Part shown: positions 3,223 to 52,254 of the stretch, one piece after another
Layout: each line of letters starts with the position of its first letter
Position numbering within the stretch: position 1 is the stretch's first letter
Assembly (NCBI GenBank): GCA_024405515.1
Contig: JAKSOR010000001.1
Coordinates: 24,235-88,234 of the forward strand
DNA: 64,000 nt
Source: Clostridia bacterium
GTDB lineage: Bacteria; Bacillota; Clostridia; Christensenellales; CAG-917
Direction of reading: 5' to 3'
Made by a program: the position numbers and the translations under genes
Notes under the pieces: model-generated
Told to the model about the DNA's origin: nothing
The model's database searches: none
Seen by the model: the letters and a program-made list of their open reading frames with translations, nothing else

Positions 3223-5889
3223 ATGTCAATTTTTAATGCTAATGACCGTAAAGTCTCAAAACTGAAAAAGACAGCACTTAAAGTTGATGCACTCGCATCA
3301 AAATATCAGGCTATGAGTGACGCCGAACTTTCCGGAATGACGGCTGTTCTTAAGGACAGACTTGCAAAAGGCGAAACGCTTGAACAAATTCTGCCGGATG
3401 CATTTGCAGTCGTACGTGAGGCCGGCACAAGAGTACTCGGCATGAGACACTTCTTCGTACAGATTATGGGCGGTATCGCAATCCATCAGGGAAGAATCGC
3501 CGAAATGGGAACAGGTGAAGGTAAAACTCTTGTTGCTACTCTCCCGGCATATCTTAATGCTCTTACGGGAAATGGTGTCCACGTAGTAACAGTAAACGAT
3601 TACCTGGCAACCCGTGACGCAGCATGGATGGGAAAACTTTATAAATTTCTCGGACTCAGTGTCGGTGTAGTTGTCCCTAATATGAAACCGGATGAAAAGA
3701 GAGCAGCTTATCTTTGTGATATTACATACTGCACAAACAATGAACTCGGATTTGACTTCTTAAGAGACAACATGGTTGTTAAAAAAGAGGATAAGGTTCA
3801 GCGTTCACTGAATTTTGCAATCATCGATGAGGTAGACTCAATTCTTATTGATGAGGCAAGAACACCTCTTATCATTTCAGGACGAGGAGGCAAGTCAAGC
3901 GAACTTTACAAAACTGCAAACACGTTTGCAAAACAGTGTAAAGAGGGCGATGATTTCACAATAGAAGAAAAAGAAAAGGCCATAATGCTTACTGATGACG
4001 GTATCCTGAAGGCTGAAAAGTTCTTCCATGTTGAAAATCTCACGGATATTGAGAATACAGAAATATATCATCATATCCAGCAGGCATTAAAGGCCCATAA
4101 TATGATGAAAAAGGATAAGGACTATATTGTTAATGATGGTGAGGTTCTTATTGTTGATGAGTTTACAGGCCGTGTAATGATCGGAAGACGTTACAATGAA
4201 GGATTACATCAGGCAATTGAAGCAAAGGAAGGAGTGGTAATAAGAAGTGAAAATAAGACACTTGCCACAATAACATTCCAGAATTTCTTCAGAATGTATA
4301 AAAAAATCAGCGGTATGACTGGTACTGCAAAAACCGAAGAAACCGAATTTGAGGGAATATATGCACTTGATGTCGTTACTATCCCTCCGAATCTCCCATC
4401 TCAGAGAAAAGATGACCAGGATCAGATTTATACTAAGGTTTCAGGTAAAATCACTGCAATTGTAGATGATATTATCAAGCACAATGCAACCGGGCAACCT
4501 GTTCTTGTCGGTACAGTCAGCGTTGAAAAATCCGAAGAATTAAGCAAAATCCTCAAAAAGAAAGGAATACAGCACAGTGTTCTTAATGCTAAATTCCATA
4601 AACAGGAATCTGAAATAATTGCACAGGCAGGAAAATACGGAGCAGTTACTATTGCAACGAATATGGCCGGACGTGGTACCGATATCATGCTTGGCGGAAA
4701 TCCTGATTTCCTTGCAAAACAGAAAATGGAAAAAGATGGTTATAAACTCGAAGTCATCGAAATGGCTACATCTCCTCTTCAGAGTGATGACCCTGAAATC
4801 ATTGCAGCAAAAGAAGCATACAAACACCATTATGATGCATTCAAGATAAACTGTGATGAGGAAAAGCAGAAAGTTCTTTCACTCGGTGGCCTGAGAATTA
4901 TCGGTACAGAGAGACACGAGAGCAGACGAATCGACAACCAGTTAAGAGGACGTGCAGGACGTCAGGGAGACCCGGGAAGCACAATTTTCTATATCTCAAT
5001 GGAAGATGACGTTGCAAGAATATTCGGCGGCGACAAGCTTAAGATGATAGCATCAAGATTTGCTCTTCCGGATGATCAGCCGATTGCAAATACAGTAATT
5101 ACAAAACAGATAGAGAGAGCACAGAAACTTGTTGAAGGAAGAAACTATTCTATACGTAAACAGGTTCTGAGTTATGACGATGTCATGAATGCTCAGAGAG
5201 AAATCATCTATAAAGAAAGAAGCAAAGTCCTCGACGGAATGGATGTCCATGACCAGATTCTTGATATGATTGATGACCTCGCAGAAGAAGTAATCGGTTA
5301 TTATGCTGATTATAAGATTGATTATCAGACATGGGATTATGAAGCATTTAATAACGCTCTTGAGCTCAAGATGCTCCCGAAGGGAACATCCTTAATGACA
5401 CCTGAACTCTGCTCATGCTATGACGTGTACAAACTCAAGGAAGCAGTATTAAAAGTTGCTCTTGAGGATTTCAACAAGAAGATTGAAGTAAGCACTTCTG
5501 CAGGTTTTGATTTTAAGGAACTTGAAAGAGTTGTTCTGCTTAAGACTGTTGACTCAAAATGGATGGATCATATAGATGCCATGGATGAACTCAGAAGAGG
5601 TATCGGTCTCAGGGGATACGGCCAGAGAGATCCTGTTCTTTCCTATCGTCAGGAAGGCTGGGAAATGTTTGAGGATATGGTTTCAAGAATTCATTCTGAG
5701 ACAGCCAATATTCTTCTCAAGGTTAATATTGAGATAAGAGAAGACAACGGGGAGGCAAAACTTCAGCAGGAAATTGCATCAGCAAAGAAAACAATTGTTA
5801 ATCAGAATAAAAAAATAGGCAGAAATGATCCGTGCCCGTGTGGTTCAGGACTCAAGTATAAGAACTGCTGCGGGAAGAATTTGTTATGA
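3223..5889 (+). CDS. secA: Preprotein translocase ATPase SecA
   Basis: 888 aa with MGTGEGKTL, DEVDSILIDEARTPLIISG and the C-terminal zinc motif CPCGSGLKYKNCC. Confidence 0.97.
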   Translation: MSIFNANDRKVSKLKKTALKVDALASKYQAMSDAELSGMTAVLKDRLAKGETLEQILPDAFAVVREAGTRVLGMRHFFVQIMGGIAIHQGRIAEMGTGEGKTLVATLPAYLNALTGNGVHVVTVNDYLATRDAAWMGKLYKFLGLSVGVVVPNMKPDEKRAAYLCDITYCTNNELGFDFLRDNMVVKKEDKVQRSLNFAIIDEVDSILIDEARTPLIISGRGGKSSELYKTANTFAKQCKEGDDFTIEEKEKAIMLTDDGILKAEKFFHVENLTDIENTEIYHHIQQALKAHNMMKKDKDYIVNDGEVLIVDEFTGRVMIGRRYNEGLHQAIEAKEGVVIRSENKTLATITFQNFFRMYKKISGMTGTAKTEETEFEGIYALDVVTIPPNLPSQRKDDQDQIYTKVSGKITAIVDDIIKHNATGQPVLVGTVSVEKSEELSKILKKKGIQHSVLNAKFHKQESEIIAQAGKYGAVTIATNMAGRGTDIMLGGNPDFLAKQKMEKDGYKLEVIEMATSPLQSDDPEIIAAKEAYKHHYDAFKINCDEEKQKVLSLGGLRIIGTERHESRRIDNQLRGRAGRQGDPGSTIFYISMEDDVARIFGGDKLKMIASRFALPDDQPIANTVITKQIERAQKLVEGRNYSIRKQVLSYDDVMNAQREIIYKERSKVLDGMDVHDQILDMIDDLAEEVIGYYADYKIDYQTWDYEAFNNALELKMLPKGTSLMTPELCSCYDVYKLKEAVLKVALEDFNKKIEVSTSAGFDFKELERVVLLKTVDSKWMDHIDAMDELRRGIGLRGYGQRDPVLSYRQEGWEMFEDMVSRIHSETANILLKVNIEIREDNGEAKLQQEIASAKKTIVNQNKKIGRNDPCPCGSGLKYKNCCGKNLL

Positions 5890-6995
5890 TAGACTACAAC
5901 CAGTTAAGATATAAACTCGGCGATATGCGTGCCGAAATGGTGCGTGCTTATGAGAGCATTAATCCTCCTAAAATAAGAGCCCGTCTTGAGGAACTTCAGA
6001 AAATCCAGGGCAGTGATGAATTCTGGAATGACCCTGATTCAGCCAAAGTGGTTTCCAAGGAAATCAGTCAGCTTCAGGCCAAACTTGAGAAGTTTGAAAA
6101 GATGATAGCAAAGATTGATGATGTAAGTGAAACTGTCGATCTTGTTGAGCTTGAGCCTAGCGATGAATATGATTTATCTCTGCAGGAATCAATAAAAGAA
6201 CTTCAGGAAAAAGTGGAAGCACTTTCGCTATCGACACTTTTAAGCGGCAAATACGATGGATTAAATGCCATTTTGACGCTTCATGCAGGTGCTGGTGGTA
6301 CTGAAGCACAGGACTGGGTACAGATGCTTTACAGGATGTATTCTAGGTATGTTGAGAAGGCCGGATGGACTTTAACAGAACTTGATTATCTTGCAGGAGA
6401 TGAGGCTGGAATCAAGAGCGTAACGTTCAGAGTCGAAGGAGATAATGCATACGGATATCTGAAAGCTGAGAAAGGAGTCCACAGGCTTGTTCGTATTTCC
6501 CCGTTTGATGCAAATGCCAGAAGACACACATCTTTTGCATCGCTTGAAGTAATGCCTGAAATCATAGATACAAGTGAAATAGAAATAAGACCGGAAGATC
6601 TTAAAATAGATACATACCGTTCATCTGGAGCGGGTGGTCAGCATGTTAACAAAACAGAAAGTGCAATAAGAATTACCCATATTCCGACAGGCATAATTGT
6701 TGCATGTCAGAATGAAAGAAGCCAGATACAGAACAGGGAAGTCGCAATGCAGATGCTTCGTTCCAAGCTCATTGAAAAGCGTGAGAGGGAAAGAGAAGAG
6801 GAAGCAGCGATGCTCAGTGGTAATCTCAAGAAAATTGAGTGGGGCAGTCAGATAAGGTCTTATGTTTTCTGCCCGTATACAATGGTTAAGGACCACAGAA
6901 CAAATTTTGAGACAGGAAACATCCAGGGAGTAATGGACGGCGATCTTGACGGATTTATCAACGAGTATTTGAAATTAAGCTCGATACAGAAATAG
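5886..6995 (+). CDS. prfB: Peptide chain release factor 2, single uninterrupted frame
   Basis: SPF motif (RISPFD) and GGQ (SGAGGQHVN). ATGA overlap with the secA stop. The N-terminal approx. 30 aa are in frame. Confidence 0.93.
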   Translation: MIDYNQLRYKLGDMRAEMVRAYESINPPKIRARLEELQKIQGSDEFWNDPDSAKVVSKEISQLQAKLEKFEKMIAKIDDVSETVDLVELEPSDEYDLSLQESIKELQEKVEALSLSTLLSGKYDGLNAILTLHAGAGGTEAQDWVQMLYRMYSRYVEKAGWTLTELDYLAGDEAGIKSVTFRVEGDNAYGYLKAEKGVHRLVRISPFDANARRHTSFASLEVMPEIIDTSEIEIRPEDLKIDTYRSSGAGGQHVNKTESAIRITHIPTGIIVACQNERSQIQNREVAMQMLRSKLIEKREREREEEAAMLSGNLKKIEWGSQIRSYVFCPYTMVKDHRTNFETGNIQGVMDGDLDGFINEYLKLSSIQK

Positions 6996-6996
6996 A

Positions 6997-8025
6997 ATGA
7001 ACAGTCTTCAGAATAAAAAGGACATAGTTGTATTATCGATTGAATCAAGTTGTGATGAGACAGCCTGTGCAATAGTCAGAAACGGCCGTGAGGTGGTTTC
7101 CAATGTTGTTGCAACACAGATTGAGATTCACAGAAGATTCGGTGGTGTGGTGCCTGAGATTGCAAGCAGGAACCATACTCTTGCTATAGAAAACGTGGTA
7201 AAAGAGGCCCTGAAACAGGCCTCAATGACAAAGGATGATATAGATGCCATAGCCGTTACTTACGGTGCTGGACTTCTCGGTGCGCTGCTTGTCGGTGTGA
7301 ATTTTGCAAAAGGTCTTGCCTATGCCTGGGATAAGCCTTTGTTTGCTGTTTCTCATGTCAAAGGACATATTGCGGCAAATTATATAGACAGCACTCTTGA
7401 ACCGCCGTATCTGTGTCTACTGGCAAGCGGAGGACACACAGCTATAGTAAAAGTAAAGGATTATGTCAATCTTGAACTTGTTTGCCAGAGCAGAGATGAT
7501 GCAGCCGGAGAGGCTTTTGATAAGACCGCAAGGGTTCTCGGGCTCCCTTATCCTGGAGGCCCAGAAATACAGAAACTGGCGCTCTTGGGAAAGCCTGTTT
7601 ATGACATGCCAAAGCCTAAATTGACACGTTTAGATGACCTGTTTTTCAGTTACAGCGGACTAAAAACGTTTGTAATCAATCTGGTGCATAATATGGAACA
7701 GAAAGGAGATAAAATACCTTCTGCCGATATAGCCGCAAGCTTCCAAAAAGCTGCAACCGATCAGCTTGTTGATACGCTCAGATTTGCTGTTGAAAATACG
7801 GGAATAAAGAAAATTGCTATTGCCGGCGGAGTGAGTGCAAACCAGGAACTCAGGGACAAAGTGGATGGACTTAAAAAGGCCGGTTGTGAAGTACATTACC
7901 CGAAACTTAAATACTGTACCGATAATGCCGCAATGATTGGTGCGGAGGCCTGTTTTATGATTAAATCCGGGGTTGAGGAGAGTGATCTTTCTCTCGATGC
8001 CAAAGCAACAGTACCGCTCAGATAA
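6997..8025 (+). CDS. tsaD: tRNA N6-adenosine threonylcarbamoyltransferase (Kae1/TsaD family)
   Basis: N-terminus LSIESSCDETACAIV, GGHT motif, 342 aa. Confidence 0.9.
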   Translation: MNSLQNKKDIVVLSIESSCDETACAIVRNGREVVSNVVATQIEIHRRFGGVVPEIASRNHTLAIENVVKEALKQASMTKDDIDAIAVTYGAGLLGALLVGVNFAKGLAYAWDKPLFAVSHVKGHIAANYIDSTLEPPYLCLLASGGHTAIVKVKDYVNLELVCQSRDDAAGEAFDKTARVLGLPYPGGPEIQKLALLGKPVYDMPKPKLTRLDDLFFSYSGLKTFVINLVHNMEQKGDKIPSADIAASFQKAATDQLVDTLRFAVENTGIKKIAIAGGVSANQELRDKVDGLKKAGCEVHYPKLKYCTDNAAMIGAEACFMIKSGVEESDLSLDAKATVPLR

Positions 8026-9290: not shown

Positions 9291-11375
9291 ATGGATAGAA
9301 AATATGCTCTTGATAAGGTGAGGAATATCGGCATCATGGCACACATCGATGCAGGAAAGACCACAACAACCGAGCGTATTCTATTCTACACAGGCGTAAA
9401 CAGAAAGTTGGGTGAGACCCATGATGGAAATGCAACCATGGATTACATGGAGCAGGAAAGAGAAAGGGGAATCACAATAACATCTGCAGCAACAACAGCC
9501 ATCTGGAAGGAGCATCAGATAAATATCATCGATACTCCGGGACACGTAGATTTCACGGTTGAGGTCGAGAGAAGTTTGAGAGTTCTCGACGGAGCAGTTG
9601 CGGTCTTCTGTGCAAAAGGTGGAGTTGAGCCTCAGTCAGAAAATGTCTGGAGGCAGGCAAATACCTATAAAGTCCCGAGAATAGCTTTCGTTAACAAAAT
9701 GGACATAAACGGCGCAAATTTTGAAAACGCAGTCCAGATGATGAAAGACAGACTCGAGGCAAATGCGGTGCCTATTGCCTTACCGATTGGAAAGGAAAGT
9801 GAATTTGAAGGAGTAATAGACCTGCTCAGAATGGTGGCAATCTATTATGATTCAGAATCAAAAGGCGTCAAATTCGAAGAAAAGGAAATTCCTGATGGAT
9901 ATAAGGAAAAAGCAGAACTTGCAAGGATGGATATCATCAGTGCAGCAGCCGATTTCGATGATGAAATCATGGAAAAATTCCTCGAAGAAGATTACGATTC
10001 AATCTCATTAGAGCAGCTCAAGGCTGCCATCCGAAAGGGAACTATCGGACTGAAATTGAATCCTGTACTCTGCGGAAGTTCTTACAGGAACGCAGGAGTT
10101 CAGTTACTGCTTGATGCAGTTGTTGATTTTCTGCCGGCACCTACTGATGTCGCAAGCATTGAAGGAACAAACCCGCATACAAAGAACCCTGAAGTTCGTC
10201 ATCCTAACGACAATGAACCTTTCAGTGCACTTGTATTCAAGATACTCACTGATGAGTTTGTTGGTAAACTTTCATTCATACGTGTGTACTCGGGTACAAT
10301 AAAGAAAGGAGATGCGACTTTCAACCCTGCAAAGGGAGCAAATGAAAGAATCGCAAGAATCCTCAGAATGAATGCTGATGAAAGAGAGGATGTCGAAGTA
10401 GCGTTTGCAGGTGATATCGTCGCAGTTATCGGACTGAAAAACAGTGTAACAGGCGATACTCTGTGCGAAAAAGGCAGACAGGTCATTCTTGAAAATATGG
10501 AATTCCCTGATCCGGTTATCAAGGTAGCCATAGAACCTAAGAGCAAAGCGTCTCAGGAAAGAATGGTCGATGCAATCCAGAAACTTCAGGAGGAAGATCC
10601 TACATTTAAGGCCTATACAGACAAGGATACAGGGCAGACAATCATTGCCGGAATGGGAGAACTTCATCTCGACATTATTGTTGACAGAATGCTCAGAGAA
10701 TTCAAAGTCGAGGCCAATATAGGAAAACCTCAGGTAAGTTACAAGGAAACAATCACGAAGTCTGCTAAGGCCGAAGGCAGGTTTATAAGACAGACCGGCG
10801 GTCACGGACAGTACGGACACGTTGTTATCGAGCTTGAGCCAAATCCGGAAGGAGGACTCATATTCGAAAATGAAATAGTCGGAGGAGTTGTTTCCAAAGA
10901 ATTCGCAAACGCAGCGTGGGAAGGAATTAAAGAATCAGCAAAGAGCGGTGTACTTGCAGGATATGAATGTGTTGATTTCAAAGTTCGTCTCGTAGACGGA
11001 AGCATGCATGAAGTTGACAGTTCGGAAATGGCATTCAAAGTAGCAGGTTCCATGGCATTCAAAGAAGCCTGTGAAAAATGCGAACCGGCACTGCTTGAGC
11101 CGATTATGAAGGTCGAAGTAATCACACCGAACGATTATCTCGGGGATGTAATGAACGGCCTGACAGGAAAGAGAGGCGCTCTTAAGGGCACAGAGCTCAG
11201 AAGTGGCGCACAGGTAGTAACTTGTGATGTTCCTCTTGCAGAAATGTTCGGGTATGCAACAGCATTAAGAACCCAGACCCAGGGCAGAGCAACATTCACA
11301 ATGTTATTTGACCATTTTGCGATGGTCCCGAAAAATCTTGTAGATAAGATTATCGGAAGAGTAAGTATTTATTAA
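9291..11375 (+). CDS. fusA: Translation elongation factor G
   Basis: 694 aa; G-domain AHIDAGKTT and DTPGHVDF; str operon position. Confidence 0.97.
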
Positions 11376-15858: not shown

Positions 15859-16233
15859 ATGGCAGATATCAATAAACTTATGGAAGAAATCAAGGGCATG
15901 ACAGTTCTTGAATTAAACGATTTCGTTAAAGCATTAGAAGCAGAATTCGGCGTAAGCGCAGCAGCTCCAGTAGCAGCAGCAGGTGCAGGCGCAGCAGCAG
16001 ATGCAGCTCCAGCAGAAGAAAAGACAGAATTCGACGTAATTCTTAAATCTTTCGGCGCAAACAAGATTGCAGTTATCAAGGTTGTTAGAGAAGCAACAGG
16101 TCTCGGCCTTGTAGAAGCAAAAGCAGCAGTTGAAGCAGCACCAAAGGCCCTCAAGGAAGGCGTTGCAAAAGATGTAGCAGAAGCATTAGTAGCAAAATTA
16201 AAAGAAGCTGGTGCAGAAGCAGAAATCAAATAA
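15859..16233 (+). CDS. rplL: 50S ribosomal protein L7/L12
   Basis: 124 aa; Ala-rich hinge; C-terminal [15 protein letters not shown]. Confidence 0.98.
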
Positions 16234-16254
16234 TTATTATTACCTATGATAGGA

Positions 16255-16287
16255 AACGGTCTGATTATTCAGGCCGTTTTTCTTTTG
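16255..16287 (+). terminator. Intrinsic terminator after rplL
   Basis: AACGGTCTGA (16255-16264) / TCAGGCCGTT (16269-16278) with one G-U pair, then TTTTCTTTT. Confidence 0.8.
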
Positions 16288-16334
16288 TTGACAATATTTA
16301 ATTAAATACTATAATGATAATAGTAATCATTATC
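16288..16334 (+). promoter_or_regulatory. Promoter plus Fur-box-like operator
   Basis: TTGACA (16288-16293), 16-nt spacer, TATAAT (16310-16315). This is immediately followed by GATAATAGTAATCATTATC (16316-16334), which matches the classical 19-bp Fur box GATAATGATAATCATTATC at 17/19 positions. Confidence 0.65.
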
Positions 16335-16347
16335 AATAAGGAAATTA

Positions 16348-16722
16348 ATGAAAGCAGTAAGGAACACTCAGCAGAAAGAACTGATTAAAAATATCGTAGA
16401 GGAGGCCTGCGATCATCCGACCGCCGATATGATATATGAAAGAGCTCAGGCAGAGCTTCCTAAAATCAGTTTAGGTACGGTTTACAGGATTTTAAGGGAA
16501 TTAGTCAACGAAGGGCTTATTCTTGAAATACCGGTAAATGGTAAGCCGTCGAGGTTTGATAAAACCATAATGAATCACGGACATTTTATCTGTGACAAGT
16601 GTGGTAAAGTTTACGACATATTCTTTGATTTCGATAAGTTTATGGGTGACATCGATTTTAAAGAGAATAAAACCGACAAAACATATATTCTGTTTAGTGG
16701 TACCTGCAGTGAATGTAAATAA
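16348..16722 (+). CDS. Fur-family metalloregulator (PerR-like by context)
   Basis: 124 aa; winged-helix N-terminal half; HGHFICDKCG and CSEC metal-site motifs; upstream of rubrerythrin. Confidence 0.75.
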   Translation: MKAVRNTQQKELIKNIVEEACDHPTADMIYERAQAELPKISLGTVYRILRELVNEGLILEIPVNGKPSRFDKTIMNHGHFICDKCGKVYDIFFDFDKFMGDIDFKENKTDKTYILFSGTCSECK

Positions 16723-16773
16723 CCCGAAAGGGAATTTGAAATAAAAAAAATATATATAAAGGAGAAATGAACT

Positions 16774-17322
16774 ATGGCAAAATATGTATGTCCAATATGT
16801 GGTTATGTTCACGAAGGAGATTCCGCTCCGGAAAAATGTCCGCAGTGCGGATGCAAAGGCACAAATTTCAAAGTTCAGGACGGAGGTCTTTCATGGGCAG
16901 CTGAACACGTAATCGGTGTCGGAGCAAAAGGCACAATCCCAGATGATATCTATGAAGGTTTAGTAGCAAACTTCCAGGGAGAATGCACAGAAGTAGGTAT
17001 GTACCTCGCAATGGCAAGAGCAGCTCACAGAGAGGGATATCCTGAAATCGGTTTATATTGGGAAAAGGCAGCATTTGAAGAAGCAGAACATGCAGCAAAA
17101 TTCTGTGAACTCTTAGGAGAACTCGTTTCACCATCAACAAAGATCAATCTTGAGAAGAGAGTTGAAGCAGAAAATGGTGCAACGGCAGGCAAGTTTGAAA
17201 TTGCAAAACGTGCAAAAGAAGAAAATCTTGATGCAATTCATGATACAGTACATGAAATGGCAAGAGATGAAGCTAGACACGGCAAAGCATTAAAGGGATT
17301 ACTTGACAGATATTTCAAATAA
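16774..17322 (+). CDS. rbr: Reverse rubrerythrin (N-terminal rubredoxin-like domain plus ferritin-like diiron domain)
   Basis: CPICG...CPQCG at the N-terminus, then ExxH diiron motifs ([18 protein letters not shown]). Confidence 0.85.
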
Positions 17323-17323
17323 T
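17255..17323 (+). repeat. Direct repeat copy 1 (3' end of rbr)
   Basis: 69 nt, matching 17972-18040 with one mismatch (C17273 vs T17990). Confidence 0.95.
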
Positions 17324-17343
17324 CGGTTTTTTAAGCGAATTTT

Positions 17344-17374
17344 GAGAGGGCCTATTTCCAGGCCCTCTCTTTTT
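17344..17374. terminator. Intrinsic terminator between convergent rbr and the orphan ORF
   Basis: GAGAGGGCCT (17344-17353) / AGGCCCTCTC (17360-17369), then TTTTT. Confidence 0.85.
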
Positions 17375-17383
17375 AATGTTTAA

Positions 17384-17911
17384 TTATTTTTTTAATTTTT
17401 GACAATTTTCTATAAACTGATTATTTAATTCATCGACATTTTTGATTAAGTCCACTTCGGATTCCGATATTTTTTTAATTGAATTGAAACTAATTGATGC
17501 AATGTCGTTGTTTAATAAAACACCAGTCGAATAGTCTAGGAATTTATTAATTGTGTTTATTGTATCAATTGTAAATCTAAAAAGATTATCGCCTTCATTG
17601 TATGCTTTATCTACTATGTTAAAATACAAATCTTTAACATATAGATCTACACAAACATTGTTCTTATTGTTATCAACTTCTTTAAGAATTCTATCAATTT
17701 CTTCATAAGAATTCTGCTCATAATTTCCAAGAAGGAAAATTGTATTGAACGCATCTATGATATCGGCAGCAAATGCTGTTTTAGAGATAAGTGAACAAGA
17801 AGAATTGTTAATATAGTTAATCGCTTCTTGGAACTTGTCGTTTGTGATGTAATTATCCCTATTATATAACCCGTTAATTGTTTTATTGATAATGTCTAAA
17901 AATTCTGTCAT
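17384..17911 (-). CDS. Orphan hypothetical protein (175 aa, N/I/D/K-rich, no TM segment or recognisable motif)
   Basis: ATG at 17911 lies 6 nt behind AGGTG; the track GTG at 17920 is less likely. Very low GC and its own promoter. Confidence 0.6.
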   Translation of the reverse strand: MTEFLDIINKTINGLYNRDNYITNDKFQEAINYINNSSCSLISKTAFAADIIDAFNTIFLLGNYEQNSYEEIDRILKEVDNNKNNVCVDLYVKDLYFNIVDKAYNEGDNLFRFTIDTINTINKFLDYSTGVLLNNDIASISFNSIKKISESEVDLIKNVDELNNQFIENCQKLKK

Positions 17912-17935
17912 ATGTGTCACCTACTTAGTGGTTAT

Positions 17936-17964
17936 ATGATAACATCACATTATAGGCGAGTCAA
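17936..17964 (-). promoter_or_regulatory. Promoter of the orphan ORF
   Basis: On the minus strand: TTGACT (17964-17959), 17-nt spacer, TATCAT (17941-17936). Confidence 0.45.
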
Positions 17965-17971
17965 TTAGTGC

Positions 17972-18039
17972 AAATGGCAAGAGATGAAGTTAGACACGGC
18001 AAAGCATTAAAGGGATTACTTGACAGATATTTCAAATAA
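17972..18039 (+). pseudogene. Detached 3' fragment of a rubrerythrin gene (last 22 codons plus stop)
   Basis: Encodes ..[21 protein letters not shown]. No upstream rbr-like sequence and no SD. Confidence 0.8.
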
Positions 18040-18040
18040 T
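17972..18040 (+). repeat. Direct repeat copy 2
   Basis: Matches 17255-17323 with one mismatch. Homology ends abruptly on both sides. Confidence 0.95.
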
Positions 18041-18060
18041 ATCATTAATAAATAATAACC

Positions 18061-18096
18061 GGAGAGAGTTCGTAAACAAACTCTCTTTGCTTTGGT
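18061..18096. terminator. Hairpin terminator between the rbr fragment and the convergent membrane-protein gene
   Basis: AGAGAGTT (18063-18070) / AACTCTCT (18079-18086), then TTTGCTTTGG. Confidence 0.6.
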
Positions 18097-18106
18097 CAGA
18101 TGTGTT

Positions 18107-18994
18107 TTAGAAAACAGCCCAGGTATTAAAGACAATTTTGCTTATAACTAAAATAATTGCTCCGAAAAAGAACAAATGTGTAAGGTAAATAAACAAAGAG
18201 TGCCTGCCTATAAAAGTGATTGGTCTGTGCCAGGCTTTGTCAAAATCAGGTAGAAGAGAGCGGTTTTCAGGATATAAAACTGGTTTTATTGCAACCCCTA
18301 TAAGGAAAAACGCACTCCACGGGATCAGATTCATAAGATCTCCAGGTGATAAGTCATTAATATAATAAAAAATCGAATTGGTCCCATCATAGTGCCTGTA
18401 CGGGAAAATAAAATATGCCCATTCAGGAGTGGAAGCTGGTGCTTTATATGTAAAATAAGTGATGATTATTCCCACCATCAAAAGTGTGGCTGTCAGCGAT
18501 TTCAATATAGGAGTCTTCTTTGTCAGAAAGTCTAAAATACAGTAAAAGAAGATGCAGAACGATAGAAAGTGAATAGTTCCGAATTCAATATATGAATTTT
18601 GCACATGGAATGTGTTGTCCAGTGTATATGATCCGATAGAAATGATAGCGGCGAGCAGACCTAATTCAGCGGCCCGTTTAAAATTTGACCTGCGGAAATG
18701 GGAACAGATTCCACATATAGAAAAGAATATAAACAATACGACTATTCTTAATGATTCGCGAACAGCGCTTGTCTGTGCATCACGAAGGAATCTGCATATC
18801 TGTGCCCCAATAGAATCTCCGATTAGTTGAGGTCCGTACCAGACTTTCCCGAAGTAGTAATAAGTAATTCTTGCTATATGGTCTAAAACAACCAGTAAAA
18901 TGCAGATGCCTCTAAGTGCATCAAGTTCCCAGATGCGTTTAGAGTCTTTGATTATTAAGAAATCATTAAGTGGAATAGCATGGTTGTTTTGCAT
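18107..18994 (-). CDS. Polytopic membrane protein, DUF1624 / heparan-alpha-glucosaminide N-acetyltransferase-like
   Basis: 295 aa with multiple TM helices. The N-terminal motif ELDALRGICILLVVLDH is typical of that acyltransferase-like family. Low GC. Confidence 0.5.
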   Translation of the reverse strand: MQNNHAIPLNDFLIIKDSKRIWELDALRGICILLVVLDHIARITYYYFGKVWYGPQLIGDSIGAQICRFLRDAQTSAVRESLRIVVLFIFFSICGICSHFRRSNFKRAAELGLLAAIISIGSYTLDNTFHVQNSYIEFGTIHFLSFCIFFYCILDFLTKKTPILKSLTATLLMVGIIITYFTYKAPASTPEWAYFIFPYRHYDGTNSIFYYINDLSPGDLMNLIPWSAFFLIGVAIKPVLYPENRSLLPDFDKAWHRPITFIGRHSLFIYLTHLFFFGAIILVISKIVFNTWAVF

Positions 18995-19045
18995 GAAAGA
19001 ATAATAAAGAAAATAAATAAACTAGTCAACCCATAAATAATAAAA

Positions 19046-19071
19046 TCCGCTAAAGAATGTTCTTTAGCGGA
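19046..19071 (-). terminator. Intrinsic terminator of the D-aminoacylase gene
   Basis: Perfect inverted repeat TCCGCTAAAGAA/TTCTTTAGCGGA. The minus strand continues with TTTTATTATTT. Confidence 0.75.
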
Positions 19072-19095
19072 CTTGTTATTAGTATAACTTAAACC

Positions 19096-20670
19096 TTATT
19101 TTTTCAGTACAACTTTTCCAGGAGTTGCTGTCTTATATTCTTCATTATCAACAACTTCTGTACCATTAACAACAACATATTTGATGCCTTTAGGGGTGAA
19201 ATCCGGGACTTTTGTATCAATTACAATATTATTATAATCGAAAATCGTAAGGTCGGCATAGTATCCTTCTTTGATATATCCTCGTTCTTTAATGATGAAT
19301 CTGTCTGCTGTTTCACCTGTCATTTTTCTTATAACTTTTTCAATTGGAATGTTGTTCTGTTTTGCTCTGACGAGGAAGTATGGGAAGCACTGGAATGCTG
19401 ATCCGTTTTGAGTTCCGCTTTCCTCAATCCATGCATCAGTCATAAAGATAGAAAGGTCATCAGTCATCAAGCGGTTAATGATCTCATCGTTATAGTATTT
19501 ACCAAGGTACAGTCTTCCTTGACCGTTTGAAAGATCAACAAGTTTAAGATATGTATCAAATTCCGTTGCACCTTCTTCTTTGGCGATATCAGAAACGGTT
19601 CTTCCTTCATATTTTTCATATCCTGGTCCGATGTATGCGACGGTGAAATCAGGGAAGTCAATACCAAGAAGCACTTTCGTTAAATTTAACATGATTTTGA
19701 GTTTGAAGATGGTTGATTTTTTCTTTTTCTGCTCAGGAGTCATTGCCATATACCATACAGGCATTGCAATTGTGATAACAGATGCTCCATATGTAAATGA
19801 ATAGTTATCATATGCAATCTTATAGCCCTTATCTTTATAATCATGGAATTTTTTCAGCATCGGTTCAACACTCGGCCAGGATGATGTTCCTGTGAAGATA
19901 AGGTGAGAGTACTCCATTCTGCACTTGGACTTTTCCATAATATCAATTACTTCATCAAGAGCAATCTCAATATGAGGCTTTGAAATCAAAGGATATCCGA
20001 GTGCTACTTTAGAACATGCACGAGGGTGGACGGTTACAATTCCGTCATATTTGGCTATTTCACTTGCAAACGCATATAGCTCTTCTTTCTTTGAATACAT
20101 GCCAGGTTCATACATGAAACCGAATGAACCTCCGAAAGCACCGTTCTCCATTGCTTCATCGACAAGTTTCATTTCCTCGGCAATCTGCTCTTTTGAAAGT
20201 GGAGCAGGATCATAACCTGAAAGACTGATACGTGTTGTACCATGCCCAATAAGAGGAACAACGTTTACATAAAGTTTGTTTTCAATTCGTTTTGTCCATT
20301 CTTTGAATCCAGTTGGATTCTTTGTGTGGAAGAGACCACCACCGACTTTATCTTTATATTTACTTTCAGAAGCAACACCGAATGGTGAGAACCCGCAGTT
20401 TCCGGTGATCTGAGTTGTTATGCCCTGCTGAATGAATGATTTAAAATATACCTCAGCATTGTCATAATCACAGAAGAAGTCATTATGTGAGTGTGCATCG
20501 ATAAAACCAGGAGCAACAGTAAGCCCCGTGCAGTCTACAATTCGGTCAGCTTCATCTGTTAAATTTGATCCTACTTTGATAATTTTTTCGTTTTCTACAA
20601 GAACATCCCCAACGTAAGGCTTGTTTCCGCTTCCATCTACGATTGTTCCGCTTTTGTATAATGTTTTCAT
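19096..20670 (-). CDS. N-acyl-D-amino-acid deacylase (D-aminoacylase) family amidohydrolase
   Basis: 524 aa; GTIVDGSGNKPYVGDVLVENEKII...APGFIDAHSHNDF N-terminal signature. Confidence 0.75.
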   Translation of the reverse strand: MKTLYKSGTIVDGSGNKPYVGDVLVENEKIIKVGSNLTDEADRIVDCTGLTVAPGFIDAHSHNDFFCDYDNAEVYFKSFIQQGITTQITGNCGFSPFGVASESKYKDKVGGGLFHTKNPTGFKEWTKRIENKLYVNVVPLIGHGTTRISLSGYDPAPLSKEQIAEEMKLVDEAMENGAFGGSFGFMYEPGMYSKKEELYAFASEIAKYDGIVTVHPRACSKVALGYPLISKPHIEIALDEVIDIMEKSKCRMEYSHLIFTGTSSWPSVEPMLKKFHDYKDKGYKIAYDNYSFTYGASVITIAMPVWYMAMTPEQKKKKSTIFKLKIMLNLTKVLLGIDFPDFTVAYIGPGYEKYEGRTVSDIAKEEGATEFDTYLKLVDLSNGQGRLYLGKYYNDEIINRLMTDDLSIFMTDAWIEESGTQNGSAFQCFPYFLVRAKQNNIPIEKVIRKMTGETADRFIIKERGYIKEGYYADLTIFDYNNIVIDTKVPDFTPKGIKYVVVNGTEVVDNEEYKTATPGKVVLKK

Positions 20671-20818
20671 ATTCCCTCCTACATGTAGTTTGTTAAGTAG
20701 TTATATTTTACATTCCAGTGAAACATAGTGCAAGACGATATCTTTTGAGTGGGCGATATTCTTCATTTGGCAATTGACCGGATTGCTGTCAGTAAATATA
20801 ATTACAGCAGAGGTATAT

Positions 20819-21703
20819 ATGAGAAGAACAGCAGTATTAGTCGTTACTATATTAGTTCTTGTCATGACAACTTTGTCGTTTACTTCCTGTGACAAGAAAT
20901 CGGAAGAAGAACCAAAAGGTCCGGAACTTATATTCTGTGATGAGTTTGACACATTGGACACGTCTGTCTGGAATATTTATAACGGGATAAGAAAGGGTGG
21001 ATACTGGGATAAAAATCAGGTTTTCGCAAAAGACGGGAACCTAGTTATACGTACATCTTTAATTGGCGGAAAGTATTATACCGGCGCAATAGATACAAAT
21101 AATAACTGGGAAGAACATTATGGTTATTATGAGGCAAAGGTCCTTGTGCCTAAAGCGAGTGGCATGTGGGCGGCATTCTGGATTTTCTGTGATGAAATGG
21201 GCGGCCCGTCAAAGGATGCTGATATAGTAGGAACCGAACTTGATATATTCGAGTCGCCATATTATAAAAATGACGGAGAACAGGCAGTAACATATCAGAG
21301 TGCATATCATATAGGAGATTACGGTGCCAATTATCTAAGTGGTACATCATATATTGATCAGCTCCTTAGTCAGGAAGACCCTGTGAATATTTTTGATGCA
21401 TGGCACGTATTCGGTCTGGACTGGACTGAAAACGGTTATGACTTTTATCTTGATGGAAAATTAATGTGGTCTCCGAATATGGAAGGCAATGTTTCAAAGA
21501 AAGACAGTTTTCTTTTCCTGTCATGTGAAATAGACGGAGCAAACGGAAATGCCAGCAAATCAATATTCCAGATAGGAACAGAACCAATTACTGCAAATCC
21601 AGAAGGGGCGTTCCCGACATCATATACAGAGGAAGGCTCATACATAAGTGATTTCCTTGTCGATTATGTGAAAGTATGGGAGTCCAACCCTTATAAAAAA
21701 TAG
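20819..21703 (+). CDS. Glycoside hydrolase family 16 (beta-glucanase/laminarinase-like), probable lipoprotein
   Basis: Start at ATG 20819 gives the signal peptide MRRTAVLVVTILVLVMTTLSFTSC. GH16 catalytic motif ELDIFE. Confidence 0.75.
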   Translation: MRRTAVLVVTILVLVMTTLSFTSCDKKSEEEPKGPELIFCDEFDTLDTSVWNIYNGIRKGGYWDKNQVFAKDGNLVIRTSLIGGKYYTGAIDTNNNWEEHYGYYEAKVLVPKASGMWAAFWIFCDEMGGPSKDADIVGTELDIFESPYYKNDGEQAVTYQSAYHIGDYGANYLSGTSYIDQLLSQEDPVNIFDAWHVFGLDWTENGYDFYLDGKLMWSPNMEGNVSKKDSFLFLSCEIDGANGNASKSIFQIGTEPITANPEGAFPTSYTEEGSYISDFLVDYVKVWESNPYKK

Positions 21704-21723
21704 CAAAGAAGATAATAAAGAAG

Positions 21724-21752
21724 TGAGGAACCGTGTGGTCCCTCATTTTGCT
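21724..21752. terminator. Hairpin between convergent GH16 and rsmI genes
   Basis: TGAGGAACC / GGTCCCTCA (one mismatch), followed by TTTTGCTTT. Confidence 0.55.
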
Positions 21753-22556
21753 TTAAAGCTTCATGGATTCCTGATAGACATCATTTTTAGGAATGCCACG
21801 TTCCTGGGTAACCTTTTTTATGGCATCCTTTTTATCCATTCCATCATTAATATATGAAAGAAGATGTTCCTTAATAGAAAGTTTAAGATATGGATTTTCC
21901 TCTTTCTTTCCGTCTATTATCATTACAATTTCACCGCGTTCCTCGCATTCAAATGAGGAGAGGGTGGTTACGGTTACTGATTCATGTATTTTTGTAAGCT
22001 CACGGCATACTCTTACTGTTCTGTCTCCGAGAATATCCAAAAGATCAGTTGCGGTTTTCTTTAAATCGTGTGGTGCTACATAGATGATTATCGGGAGTTC
22101 TGTTTTGTCAACTTTTGTCAGAATCGATACTTTATCTGCCTTTTTATCAGGTAAAAACCCTATAAATGTGAAACCTGCATCTTTTATGCCACTGAGTGCT
22201 ACTGCGCTTGCAAAAGCTGTCGGGCCAGGGACAAGCTCAACTTCAACTCCGCCTTCATGGCATCTTGAGACTACTTCCGCACCAGGGTCTGATATGGACG
22301 GCATACCTGCATCTGTTATTATTGCAACGTTATTTCCGTCACGTATAAGTTCTATTAATTTGTTGCTGCATTCTGCTTCATTGAATTTGTGGTATGCAAT
22401 TAATTTGGCATGAATGTCATATGCTGAAAGAAGTGGAAGGGAATGCCTTGTGTCCTCACATGCTATGTACTCGCACATTTTCAGTGTTTCCACTGCACGG
22501 TAGGTGATGTCTTTAAGATTTCCAATCGGAGTCCCGACTATATAAAGTTTTGCCAT
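21753..22556 (-). CDS. rsmI: 16S rRNA (cytidine1402-2'-O)-methyltransferase
   Basis: 267 aa; KLYIVGTPIGNLKDITYRAVETLK; tetrapyrrole-methylase fold family. Confidence 0.9.
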   Translation of the reverse strand: MAKLYIVGTPIGNLKDITYRAVETLKMCEYIACEDTRHSLPLLSAYDIHAKLIAYHKFNEAECSNKLIELIRDGNNVAIITDAGMPSISDPGAEVVSRCHEGGVEVELVPGPTAFASAVALSGIKDAGFTFIGFLPDKKADKVSILTKVDKTELPIIIYVAPHDLKKTATDLLDILGDRTVRVCRELTKIHESVTVTTLSSFECEERGEIVMIIDGKKEENPYLKLSIKEHLLSYINDGMDKKDAIKKVTQERGIPKNDVYQESMKL

Positions 22557-34526: not shown

Positions 34527-36374
34527 ATGAGCGAAAAGAAGAAAGCGGAAAACAAAGCAGTAAAGCGCACCAATATCGGTGGTCAGGCTGTTCTTGAAGG
34601 TGTCATGATGAAGGGCACCCGTTGTTATGCTACTGCCGTTCGCTCTGCAACAGGTGATATCACAATCGAAAGTCACTATACAAAAAGTGCAAAAGAGAGA
34701 AATATCATCCTCCGTCTGCCATTCATAAGAGGGGTTGTTAACCTTCTGACTCAGCTTTTTCAGGGCACCGGCATAATAATGAGATCCGCAGAAGTCTACG
34801 GGGATTATGCAGAACCTTCAAAATTCGAGAAATGGATGTCAGACAAATTCAAAATAAATCCGATGAATCTTCTTATGGCATTCTCTGTTGTTCTGGGCGT
34901 TGCTCTAGCAGTCGGAATGTTTATTTTCCTGCCGAATTTTCTCACTGGTCTTATCTGTGATAATATAGCAGCTATCAGGGATTCATCACTTTACAGTTTA
35001 TGGTACAGTCTCATTGAGGGCGGCATAATGCTCACGATATTCATATCGTACATAGCCCTGGTATCTCTCATGAAGGACATAAAGAGAGTATTCATGTACC
35101 ATGGCGCTGAGCATAAGGTAATAAGCTGTTATGAGCACGGTCTTGAACTTACGGTTGAAAATGCAAAAAAAATGAAGAGAGAGCATTCAAGATGCGGAAC
35201 GACCTTCCTTTTCTTTGTAATTTCCGTGAGTATCATTGTGTTCGTGCTTATCAATTTCATGCTCGAAAGATGCGGCCTGCTTGTATCGGACAGCGTCACT
35301 GCATATAAAGTACTCAACATACTCATAAGGCTAGGATTCAAACTTTTATTCCTGCCTGTTGTAGCCGGAGTATCCTATGAACTTTTAAAGCTTCTTGCCA
35401 AAAGCGATGCACTTCCTGTAAGAATAATCCGTGCACCGGGTATGCTGCTTCAGAAACTGACAACAAAAGAACCGACGGATGACATGCTTGAGGTCTCAAT
35501 AACAGCATTCAAGACAGTTCTTGAAATGGATGAGAAAGACATTCCGGAAAAAACATTTGACATCAATGTCCCGTATGCTATTGAGAGAAAGAAAATCGAG
35601 GATATGCTGAAGGGTACTGACGAAGCAGATATAGACTGGCTTTTTGTGGATGTAACAAAAACAAAACGCAGTGAACTTGCTCAGCTCAAAGTTGTCACAA
35701 AAGCACAGGCGGACACTCTTGAAGCTGCTGCCAAAAAGATGGCAGAAGGAATGCCTTATCAGTATGCACTCGGAAGAACCGAGTTCTATGGAAGAACAAT
35801 AAATCTCAATCAGAACGTTCTGATTCCTCGCCAGGATACTGAAGAAGTTGTCTATAAAGCAATCGAACTTATTAAGGCAAATGACTACAAGTCCTGTCTT
35901 GATCTCTGTACAGGGAGCGGTGCAATTGCTGTAACAATCAAAAAAGAAACGAAGATTGATGTAACTGCAACAGATATCTTTGAAGGAGCAACAGAAATAG
36001 CAAAAGCTAATATGCTTGTGAATCTTGCCCCTTGTGTTGTAAAACAGGGCGATATGTTTGAAGCTCTTGAGGAAAACGAAAAATTTGATATTATCGTTTC
36101 AAATCCGCCATATATACCTTCAGCGGATATCGAGACACTGGAAAAGAAAGTTAAGGATTTCGAACCTAGACTTGCCCTTGACGGGGACAAAGATGGTCTG
36201 AAATTCTACAGAATAATTCATAACGGATATAAGAATCACCTCAATGAAAACGGGGCTCTTGTTATGGAATTCGGTATCGGTCAGGCTGAAGCCATAAAGG
36301 AAATTTTCAGCGATGCAGATGTCGAAATAATAAAAGACATGAACAATATTGAAAGGATAGCAGTAGTAAAATGA
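34527..36374 (+). CDS. prmC: Fusion protein: DUF1385 membrane domain plus release-factor glutamine N5-methyltransferase PrmC/HemK
   Basis: Start at ATG 34527. The N-terminal approx. 335 aa carry DUF1385 hallmarks ([30 protein letters not shown]). The C-terminal approx. 280 aa are a complete PrmC ([35 protein letters not shown]). Confidence 0.85.
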
Positions 36375-37459
36375 AAGTCAGTGAAGGAATGTTAAATAAA
36401 CTCAATAAGATAGAGGAACGCTGCAACGAAGTAGGCGAGCTTTTGTCAAAACCTGAAATAATTGCCGATCAGCAGCAGTTCAAGGCACTCGGAAAAGAAC
36501 ATTCCGACCTTACTCCTATTGTTGAAATTTATCAGCGCTATAAGAAGCACCGTCAGGATTTTGATGACTGTGAGGAGATGCTGACTGTTGAGGAAGATCA
36601 GGAATTAAGGAATATGATTAAGCAGGAAATGGATGATTTAAGGGATGCCCTTGACCAGGATGCTTCCGATCTTAAAATAGCCATGCTTCCTAAAGACCCT
36701 AACGATGACAATAACGTAATCATAGAAATAAGAGGCGGAGCCGGTGGCGATGAAGCAGCACTTTTCGGTACTGAGCTTATGAAAATGTACCGTCACTATG
36801 CAGATCTTAACAGATGGAAAGTCGAAGAAATCAATATGAACTACACTGAACTCGGCGGCGCAAAGGAATTAACTTTCATGATTTCCGGTAAAGGCGCATA
36901 CGGAAAACTCAAATTCGAAAGCGGAGTTCACAGAGTACAGAGAGTGCCGGAGACGGAATCACAGGGAAGAGTACATACCTCAACGGCAACCGTAGCAGTT
37001 CTTCCTGAGGCGGAAAACGTTCAGATTGAAATCAATGAAAACGACCTTAAGATAGATACATATCGTTCATCAGGAGCAGGCGGACAGCATGTTAATAAGA
37101 CAGAAAGTGCTATCCGTATGACACATATTCCAACAGGAATCGTGGTAGAATGCCAGGATGAAAGATCCCAGATTAAGAACAGGGAAAAAGCAATGATAGT
37201 AATGAAGTCCAGACTCTATGATTATTATCAGAGTCAGGCAGATAAGGAATATGCCGAAAACAGAAGGGCCCAGATAGGCACCGGAGACAGAAGCGAAAGA
37301 ATAAGAACATATAACTTCCCACAGGGAAGAGTAACAGACCACAGAATCGGGTTCACAATTTACTCAATTGAGAAATTTATGCTCGGTGATATGGATGAAA
37401 TGATTTCAGCACTGCAGATAGCAGTTCAGAATAAAATGCTTGAAAACGTAGAAGATTAG
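36371..37459 (+). CDS. prfA: Peptide chain release factor 1
   Basis: 362 aa; [17 protein letters not shown] (PxT motif); GGQ (SGAGGQHVN); ATGA overlap with the prmC stop. Confidence 0.95.
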
Positions 37460-51221: not shown

Positions 51222-52214
51222 ATGGCAAAAAATGTTCAGGAAGAAGTCAAAAGATTGGCAGTTCTGACAAGTGGCGGAGATGCATCCGGAATGAATGCGG
51301 CAATACGTGCTGTTGTCAGATGGGGTATCACTCTCGGTTACGAGGTTTACGGCGTACGAAGAGGCTATAAGGGGCTTGTTGAGGATGATATTGTCAGGAT
51401 GGAATATAAGAGCGTGTCTAACACGGTCCATACCGGCGGTACATTATTAAGAACCAGCAGATATCCGGAATTCAGTGAAGTGGAAAACGCAAAAAAAGGT
51501 GCGGAGAATCTCCTGAAAAGAGGTATTAACAATCTTATCGTAATCGGTGGGGACGGTTCATTCAGAGGAGCGAAACTTCTTCATGATGAGACACAGCTTA
51601 ATGTGGTTACGATACCGGGAACAATAGACAATGATATGGCATATACCGAGTATACAATCGGTTATGACACGGCCTGCAATACCGTTCTTGATGCAATACT
51701 TAAATTAAGAGACACTATCACATCTCACGACAGGATCATGATTCTCGAAGTCATGGGAAGAGAAAGCGGCAACATTGCCCTTAACTCGGCAGTAGCCGGG
51801 GGTGCAGAGTATGTGCTCGTTCCGGAAATGCCTGTTGATGTGGATAAAATTGCTGCAAGTGTAAAGAAAGGTTTTGATGAAAAAGGAAAAACATCCACTA
51901 TCATAATTCTTGCAGAAGGCAAAGCCCACCTTAAGGATGAACTCATTGAGAAAATATCAAAAGCAACAAACAGGACAGTAAATCATATGTCTCTCTCATA
52001 TATGCAGAGGGGCGGAAACCCGACAATGGCAGACAGAGTACTCGGAGCAAAACTCGGAGCACATGCTGTTGAACTCATTGATGAGGGGCAGAGCGGAAGA
52101 GCAGTGGGAATCAAAGGACAGAATGTATTTGATGTCACGATTGCAGCAGCTCTTGACGGCAAGAAAGGTTTTGATGAGAAACTTTACAGAATTGCCGAAA
52201 CAATCAGTAAATAA
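51222..52214 (+). CDS. pfkA: ATP-dependent 6-phosphofructokinase
   Basis: 330 aa; GGDGS and PGTIDND (the Gly/Gly pair diagnostic for ATP use). Confidence 0.9.
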   Translation: MAKNVQEEVKRLAVLTSGGDASGMNAAIRAVVRWGITLGYEVYGVRRGYKGLVEDDIVRMEYKSVSNTVHTGGTLLRTSRYPEFSEVENAKKGAENLLKRGINNLIVIGGDGSFRGAKLLHDETQLNVVTIPGTIDNDMAYTEYTIGYDTACNTVLDAILKLRDTITSHDRIMILEVMGRESGNIALNSAVAGGAEYVLVPEMPVDVDKIAASVKKGFDEKGKTSTIIILAEGKAHLKDELIEKISKATNRTVNHMSLSYMQRGGNPTMADRVLGAKLGAHAVELIDEGQSGRAVGIKGQNVFDVTIAAALDGKKGFDEKLYRIAETISK

Positions 52215-52254
52215 GAAAATAAACATAAATGTTTTTAAAACAAAGGAGTAATTT

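Follow-up and report, generated by a model that had tools for sequence, protein, structure and literature searches.

The locus described here raises the question of why an intact gene should be followed by a second copy of its own last codons, with an unrelated gene enclosed between the two. It lies in a stretch of 64,000 nucleotides from a Clostridia bacterium (assembly GCA_024405515.1, contig JAKSOR010000001.1, positions 24,235 to 88,234 of the forward strand), which is called the window throughout. In this window, the 3' end of the rubrerythrin gene (rbr) is repeated directly on the far side of an insert that holds one gene. In our reading, to which we assign a probability of roughly 0.6, the insert and its two flanking repeats form a cassette that is an integrase-less relic of an integrative element of the prophage type or the mobilizable-island type, still flanked by attachment (att) sites and resembling a cis-mobilizable element (CIME). 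The original prediction, made from the sequence alone, had named a decayed or miniature element with attL/attR-like ends. This idea is supported by integrase-bearing elements that use the same gene end, by a left boundary shared with another genome (locus L012), and by the failure of the alternatives.

The two repeat copies are identical at all but one of their 69 positions (98.6% DNA identity; coordinates are collected in Table 1). The sole mismatch, C17273 in copy 1 versus T17990 in copy 2, changes GCT to GTT and is non-synonymous, placing valine in the displaced copy at the alanine of the conserved DEARHG motif. Both edges of the repeat are abrupt, with G17254 facing C17971 on the left and CGG facing ATC on the right. 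The coordinates, length, substitution and flanking letters given in the original prediction were all reproduced exactly. The local alignment score of the repeat is 133; for comparison, shuffled versions of a 116-nt query that spans it reached 22.5 +/- 2.5 (maximum 35) against window positions 18046-22000. No other high-identity direct repeat of at least 30 nt occurs anywhere in the window, and both att-like copies appear intact in sequence. The host gene has remained intact as well, its reading frame running through copy 1 to the stop codon. It encodes a protein with an N-terminal rubredoxin-like domain and a ferritin-like domain, and is preceded by the genes for the ribosomal proteins L1, L10 and L7/L12 and for a Fur-family regulator.

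The insert appears to bring its own expression signals. The separate terminator that had been proposed just inside its left end (T1) is real: its ten-pair stem contains seven G-C pairs and folds with -23.7 kcal/mol (z = -4.9). This terminator, supplied by the insert, is predicted to be the one that now closes the rbr transcript. The minus-strand open reading frame (ORF) had been credited with its own promoter, and both a promoter-like site, which is a match to the consensus only, and the ribosome-binding motif AGGTGA were found, the former 7 nt from copy 2. A second hairpin, which had been placed at 18063-18086 behind copy 2 (T2), is also present but weaker (approximately 18060-18088, -12.8 kcal/mol, z = -2.2), and a simple terminator scan missed it. 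It is probably the original rbr terminator. A search for known RNA families in 16200-18300 gave only sub-threshold terminator matches.

In base composition the insert is unusual, with 28.4% G+C compared to 39.9% for the window, which makes it the second lowest among 1268 segments of 648 nt. The earlier hand counts of 46 G+C in 180 nt (17401-17580) and 60 in 120 nt of rbr (16801-16920) are exact. The GC content at third codon positions is 0.256 in the cassette gene, 0.262 in rbr and 0.24 in the L7/L12 gene. Since these values match, the low GC of the insert comes mostly from codon positions 1 and 2 of a gene whose protein is rich in N, I, K and D, and is a weaker sign of foreign origin than it first appears.

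Within the insert, no integrase, transfer gene, transposase or intI-like gene was found, and its sole gene has no recombinase signature. No mobility gene was found anywhere in the window (phmmer, ORFs of at least 120 aa), in agreement with what had been noted from the sequence. An unusually long target duplication had been listed among the alternatives; duplication of a target site by a transposon or insertion sequence was rejected, as 69 nt compares to a typical 2-14 bp, terminal inverted repeats are lacking at the insert ends, and there is no transposase.

The cassette gene can be taken as real, since a run of 178 codons without a stop would arise with a probability of about 2e-7 at this composition. 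Its product has an isoelectric point of 4.5 and is predicted to be all-helical. The protein matches no family in Pfam, PADLOC, PHROGs or NCBIfam, and no PDB sequence in a profile search. AlphaFold2 models were too poor for use, with a mean confidence score (pLDDT) of 39 from the single sequence and 41 from two sequences. In an index of 5.8 billion proteins the protein finds only itself (MCQ2408943.1, from a metagenome-assembled genome (MAG) of Clostridia). An exhaustive phmmer search of 1.84 billion representatives returned one homologue, P0002 (45% identity, 175 aa, E = 7e-31), and a profile built from both proteins recovered no further family members. The original prediction suggested looking for other copies of the insert; blastn found no second copy in the window, and protein searches of phage, plasmid and IMG/VR collections found no relative. 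The intact frame and identical length kept at 45% identity argue that the gene is under selection, and it is probably functional. The same ORF is also recorded, from start to stop codon exactly, as a 528-nt "contig" (L001; GCA_024500515.1, JALNLU010937370.1), which may be a database oddity rather than a real contig.

The gene for P0002 belongs to L111, a JGI contig of 121 kb whose synteny with the window extends from TsaD to FtsX. The order in L111 is rbr, copy 1, a terminator, the convergent gene for the 175-aa homologue, copy 2 and a second terminator, and this arrangement aligns with the window from end to end. The cassette is thus not a recent arrival peculiar to one genome. Protein identity between the window and L111 is 94% for EF-Tu, 91% for L1, 84% for rsmI and 81% for rbr, and lower for Fur (67.5%), FtsX (61%) and the cassette protein (45%). 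In L111, the repeat copies are 54 nt long and 92.6% identical. The left junction of L111, C|AAAT, is the same as that of the window if an indel of 2-3 nt is allowed, and erosion at the left edge of its copy 2 amounts to three mismatches and an indel. The segment 3' of copy 2 in the window can be partly aligned with the matching segment of L111.

Because the source is a MAG, an artefact of assembly, for instance a false loop caused by a repeated k-mer or a chimera between two strains, was weighed; the original prediction had named such an error as a possible refutation. A Logan contig (SRR17543913, k = 31) stops precisely 30 nt (k - 1) inside copy 2, at a branch point of the assembly graph, but a real repeat would also produce that branch. 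This contig end implies that both right-hand junctions are present in the SRR17543913 reads, as would hold alike for a filled site and for a mixture of filled and empty sites. Moreover, one base distinguishes the two copies, and no more than 18 nt separate either allele from the left flank to which it is joined. We rejected the artefact because the independent L111 assembly, from a different organism, has the same architecture in a different sequence, and two further loci (L012 and L103, described below) have it with other cargo; we regard it as barely conceivable. A separate Logan contig from the same sample (L082, with the L7/L12, Fur and rbr genes) breaks in the middle of rbr, at 17088, and not at the repeat, an indication of either heterogeneous strains or a 31-mer that also occurs in another rbr of the sample.

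The block of L1, L10, L7/L12, Fur and rbr genes is syntenic in L111 and in two more distant relatives (L002 and L003). The latter two have rbr followed by one terminator, with neither a second copy nor a cassette. By parsimony, the insertion would have occurred on the branch that leads to the window and L111. Among the relatives examined for the empty site that had been suggested, only these distant ones lack the cassette and copy 2; the species-level search is taken up below. A metagenome scan with the neighbouring Fur protein returned nothing above 54% identity.

The region 3' of rbr is variable beyond the cassette, as the content of 18107-21703 differs among relatives. In the window, this interval between copy 2 and rsmI holds genes for an acyltransferase-3 protein (HGSNAT_cat), an amidohydrolase and a GH16 protein. 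None of them occurs in the syntenic relatives, where the interval holds an unrelated gene of 372 aa (L111) or approximately 600 nt of non-coding DNA (L002 and L003). A third, decayed repeat bounding these genes downstream was sought in 18046-22000, and nothing scored above the shuffled controls. In L111, copy 1 is followed by a terminator stem (10530-10565, GAGAGTT...AACTCTC) that is similar to the window's stem behind copy 2 (18062-18086) and not to the one behind copy 1 (17344-17369). The likeness may be due to chance or to an exchange of flanks between the junctions.

Within the window and within L111, copy 2 matches the copy 1 of its own genome and not the copies of the other. This pattern argues that the copies at the end of rbr have been kept alike, or renewed, in each lineage. 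If the insertion predates the split from L111, the near-identity of the copies requires a further process. In L111, the erosion at the left edge of copy 2 agrees with gene conversion that breaks down towards the block ends, and it points to the L111 copy being a fossil.

To find other users of this gene end, all fetched rbr loci were scanned for a second copy of the last 72 nt of rbr. Such copies were present in two further loci. In L103 (7093-8179; rbr at 6640-7188), the second, decayed copy of about 156 nt lies 870 nt downstream, is about 82% identical with indels, and includes the terminator. Between the L103 copies there are genes for a DUF4258 toxin (7284-7604) and an MqsA-like zinc-finger antitoxin (7604-7831). 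In L012 (4478-7600), three tandem copies of the rbr end were found, at 4478-4550, 4785-4841 and 7528-7600. The first interval holds a 73-aa Zn-ribbon ORF, and the second holds genes for a 521-aa membrane protein and a serine recombinase (Resolvase and HTH_7 domains). The recombinase frame contains the RVST motif and has no in-frame ATG, GTG or TTG start, which may reflect a frameshift or a sequencing error in the MAG. The tandem array shows that accretion, or repeated use of the site at the rbr end, does occur.

Another origin for such a duplication would be a second tandem rbr paralogue that was mostly deleted or overwritten, leaving its last 22 codons, as the original prediction also considered. 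Tandem pairs do exist, since two distant Clostridia (L007 and L063) carry two rbr genes close together. The members of these pairs match the rbr of the window at 76% versus 63% and at 74% versus 73% (aa), and their paired 3' ends are 85-90% identical in DNA, compared to 98.6% here. Homology in the window also starts abruptly at a position common to L012, and copy 2 follows the resident gene in both the window and L111. The paralogue relic was rejected because the 648-bp interior shows no protein or DNA similarity to rbr (best tblastn E = 7.6; chance blastn matches of at most 14 nt), and we consider it very improbable.

The boundaries of the repeats are informative about how the copies arose. 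Counted from the end of the stop codon, the repeat spans -67 to +1 in the window, -68 to +4 in copy 3 and -53 to +3 in copy 2 of L012, -95 to +60 in L103, and -57 to +21 in L111 (or from -67 with the indel). Position -68 of L012 copy 3 is homologous to -67 of the window, as the L012 rbr has one extra codon. One class of left edge (-67; G|AAATGG, at the H-E-M codons) is therefore common, within 2 nt, to the window, L111 and L012 copy 3. The chance of such a coincidence in a gene of 550 nt is roughly 1%, for a class that rests on two independent insertions. The right end of blocks in this class always lies shortly behind the stop codon (+1 to +4), as expected if the element brings a replacement gene end with it. 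A second class, with left edges at about -95 to -100, comprises L103 and the integrase-bearing phages described next.

In the IMG/VR collection, rbr is represented on five viral contigs (L120-L122 and L124, approximately 28-29 kb and from one sample, and L123) by no more than about its last 93 nt. Their rbr fragments start at about -95 to -100. The fragment covers aa 151-181 with 100% identity to the rbr of the window in L120 and L121 and 97% in L122; in L123 it covers aa 153-181 with 90% identity, and in L124 aa 151-168 only, after which the contig ends. In all five, a divergent gene for a tyrosine integrase (PF00589 and PF14659) lies about 160 nt from the rbr fragment, and in L122 (6630-8100) an endolysin gene lies just beyond the integrase. 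As judged from gene order, this is the typical end of a prophage, with the integrase beside the att site. The L122 fragment has an in-frame TAA where L120 has TTA, which is consistent with a displaced, non-functional copy. A degenerate DNA scan of viral contigs for the coding motif of MARDEARHG recovered only the L120 and L123 phage types and none starting from the -67 boundary.

L119 has an integrase-like gene 360 nt after rbr; its product contains a SAM-like integrase domain (PF13102) and the motif ...SFRHSW..., with the catalytic-domain family PF00589 unmatched. In L118, an ISL3 transposase and an AAA_25 protein are encoded after rbr. L019, L043 and L071 have integrases near rbr and no second rbr-end copy in the flank examined, and were not counted as evidence. 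The copies in L103 and L012, together with the integrase-adjacent fragments of L120-L124, identify the 3' end of rbr as a recurrent attachment site. No paper was found that describes the rubrerythrin gene as an attachment site.

The same boundaries bear on a further explanation, in which a circular DNA carrying a 3' stretch of rbr was inserted by RecA through homologous (Campbell-type) recombination, followed by gene conversion. The geometry of the product would be the same as that of site-specific integration. A length of 69 bp is near that at which RecA-dependent exchange becomes workable. Block lengths also vary, the L103 duplication of about 156 nt with indels and a terminator being an example. 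On the other hand, the left edges in the window, L111 and the independent L012 fall within 2 nt, the second edge is common to L103 and the phages, and homology-driven events have no reason to start at fixed positions. The consistent end of the -67 class also fits a replacement gene end better than it fits this route, which we consider quite unlikely.

Nucleotide differences between copies in the related loci were pooled and divided into 17 synonymous and 8 non-synonymous changes. Random change is expected to give a synonymous share of 20-25%, and the excess is significant even against a 40% model in which one copy is constrained (P = 0.004). This suggests that each copy evolved as a functional gene end in a lineage of its own, that of the element in one case and that of the host in the other.

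Such a pattern is also what would be seen if the cassette were a live mini-element consisting of repeat, terminator and gene, which a recombinase acting in trans would excise and reinsert within the species. The enzyme would be supplied by a helper phage or island at the same rbr site, or be encoded elsewhere in the genome. Each integration would displace a fresh host gene end and so explain copies that differ at 1 of 69 positions in the window, even though the cargo protein is only 45% identical to that of L111. The mostly synonymous differences elsewhere are as expected if element and host copies come from a common gene pool. The window retains both att-like cores intact, the L012 array indicates that the site is used repeatedly, and the integrase-bearing phages target a nearly identical rbr end. 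However, there is no helper recombinase in the window, the family has two members only, both chromosomal and in the same syntenic place, and viral, plasmid and phage collections hold no copy. The eroded copy 2 of L111 looks immobile, and there is no room for arm sites, for reasons given below. A live element therefore seems unlikely to us, if worth keeping in mind.

For the integrase-less relic, we propose the following course of events. An integrative element would have recombined site-specifically with an attachment site inside the last ~67 nt of rbr, bringing its own copy of the gene end, as do elements that target the 3' ends of tRNA or protein genes. Copy 1 would then complete rbr, with T1 from the insert closing the transcript, and the other gene end (copy 2, derived from host or element) would have been displaced with T2 to the far junction. 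The insertion would predate the split between this organism and the L111 organism. The recombinase and nearly everything else would have been lost before that split, or may never have been part of a mini-element. What remains would be attL, a terminator, one cargo gene with its own promoter, and attR. The copies may have been kept alike by gene conversion between the repeats, or by repeated re-integration within the species.

Several observations weigh against this scenario. A phmmer search with three integrases and one resolvase found no recombinase in the window among ORFs of at least 120 aa, and none was found above the same size in the 20.5 kb of L111 examined. No species-level empty site was found: an exact-protein look-up of rbr was empty, and the closest rbr in genome contigs has 84% identity. 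No excised circle was found either. The cassette shares no sequence with any integrase-bearing element, so that its derivation from a larger element can only be argued indirectly. Between each repeat and the gene there are only about 60 nt, filled by the terminator on one side and the promoter on the other, which leaves no room for the arm-type sites of lambda-like integrases. Among arrays of this boundary class, the only recombinase seen (in L012) is small and of the serine family, and not a tyrosine integrase. The synonymous excess is weaker under a strong transition bias (P ~0.05 against a 50% model), and the one difference that the window adds to this test is non-synonymous. Finally, the cassette family has two members, both at this locus in related genomes, which fits a lineage-specific resident gene better than a travelling element.

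A broader interpretation is that the 3' end of rbr serves as a shared landing pad for a population of cassettes that hold one gene or a few, lack a recombinase and are moved in trans by the integrases of phages or islands. The orphan acidic protein of the window and L111, the toxin-antitoxin pair of L103 and the Zn-ribbon protein of L012 may be the cargo of such cassettes. We hold this to be something of a long shot. If true, it would amount to an integron-like cassette economy in gut Clostridia, with the end of a housekeeping gene replacing attC/attI, and near-identical repeats would be the signature of recent turnover.

The locus has some wider relevance. In Clostridia of the gut and rumen, the 3' end of rbr is identified as a recurrent attachment site that phages and small cassettes use. 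The locus also provides a clean, minimal example of an att-flanked, recombinase-less insert with one gene that has persisted across a genus-level split with its repeats kept alike. The orphan cargo gene was evidently kept, and may have a phage-related accessory function. For the annotation of MAGs, such duplications may pass for assembly errors or be missed as the boundaries of islands. The novelty of the cassette lies in the gene targeted, in its extremely compact form (648 bp, one gene) and in its persistence; the kind of element itself is well known, and no new mechanism is implied.

The features of the locus are listed in Table 1. Elsewhere, the window has ordinary housekeeping content, including two release-factor genes (PCRF and RF-1 domains) at 5886-6995 and 36371-37459, and two adjacent phosphofructokinase genes at 51222-53496.

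Table 1. Positions of the features at the rbr locus, numbered from the first letter of the window.
Feature	Position	Strand	Description
rbr	16774..17322	+	rubrerythrin, 182 aa; Pfam PF21349 and PF02915
Repeat copy 1 (attL-like)	17255..17323	+	last 22 codons and stop of rbr, plus one base each side
Insert between repeats	17324..17971		648 bp, 28.4% GC
T1, strong predicted intrinsic terminator within insert	17344..17374	+	stem 17344-17369, then TTTTT
Cassette gene (MCQ2408943.1 / MJ068_00200)	17384..17911	-	175 aa, convergent to rbr
Putative ribosome-binding site of cassette gene	17917..17922	-	AGGTGA, 5 nt upstream of ATG at 17911
Promoter-like site of cassette gene	17936..17964	-	TTGACT, 17 nt, TG-n-TATCAT (extended -10); consensus match only
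Repeat copy 2 (attR-like), displaced rbr 3' end	17972..18040	+	carries T17990 (Ala to Val)
T2, weaker terminator-like hairpin 3' of copy 2	18060..18092	+	hairpin, then TTTGCTTT

Known systems offer partial parallels to the cassette. Like the gene cassettes of integrons, it is a compact single-gene unit at a recombination site without its own recombinase. It differs in that the repeat is part of a housekeeping gene and in that the cassette has its own promoter and terminator. An integron gene cassette was rejected, since the repeat is unstructured, with no attC-like fold (z = +0.5), and there is no intI-like gene.

In staphylococci, staphylococcal cassette chromosome (SCC) and pseudo-SCC elements insert at the 3' end of rlmH (orfX), with repeats of about 15-18 bp and large serine recombinases (Ccr). 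There too, a housekeeping gene is followed by accumulated cassettes, some without a recombinase, and a repeat containing the gene end bounds each of them. At the rbr locus, in contrast, the repeat is 69 nt long, and no Ccr-type enzyme was found.

Temperate phages and islands with tyrosine integrases have identity blocks of about 17-110 bp, and their attP carries a replacement gene end. The cassette resembles them in its block, which starts at a fixed point inside the gene and ends shortly after the stop codon, and in the displaced gene end at the far junction. It differs from them in having neither an integrase nor phage genes, and in its -67 boundary, compared to about -95 to -100 in the phages. 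Lacking an integrase, it is not a complete integrative element.

The closest parallel is provided by the CIMEs of the streptococcal literature and by other decayed integrative elements that attL and attR flank at the 3' end of a protein gene; the fda locus of Streptococcus thermophilus is an example. This cassette is far smaller than the CIMEs familiar to us (648 bp and one gene), and its repeats are longer. The users of the rbr end that bear tyrosine integrases are phage-like (L120-L124), and L119 has only an integrase-like gene. Homology of the cassette to any full-length integrative and conjugative element or integrative and mobilizable element was tested, and none was found in the collections searched; for this reason the cassette is said to work like a CIME and is not filed as one. 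By definition, a CIME keeps attL and attR, and it can be mobilized in cis once another element has joined it at its site (PMC5704250). The cassette shares with CIMEs the direct repeats derived from the 3' end of the target gene, the intact target gene, the lack of integrase and transfer genes, which would have been lost if they were once present, and a small cargo. Tandem accretion at the same site, as seen in the related locus L012, is a further trait in common.

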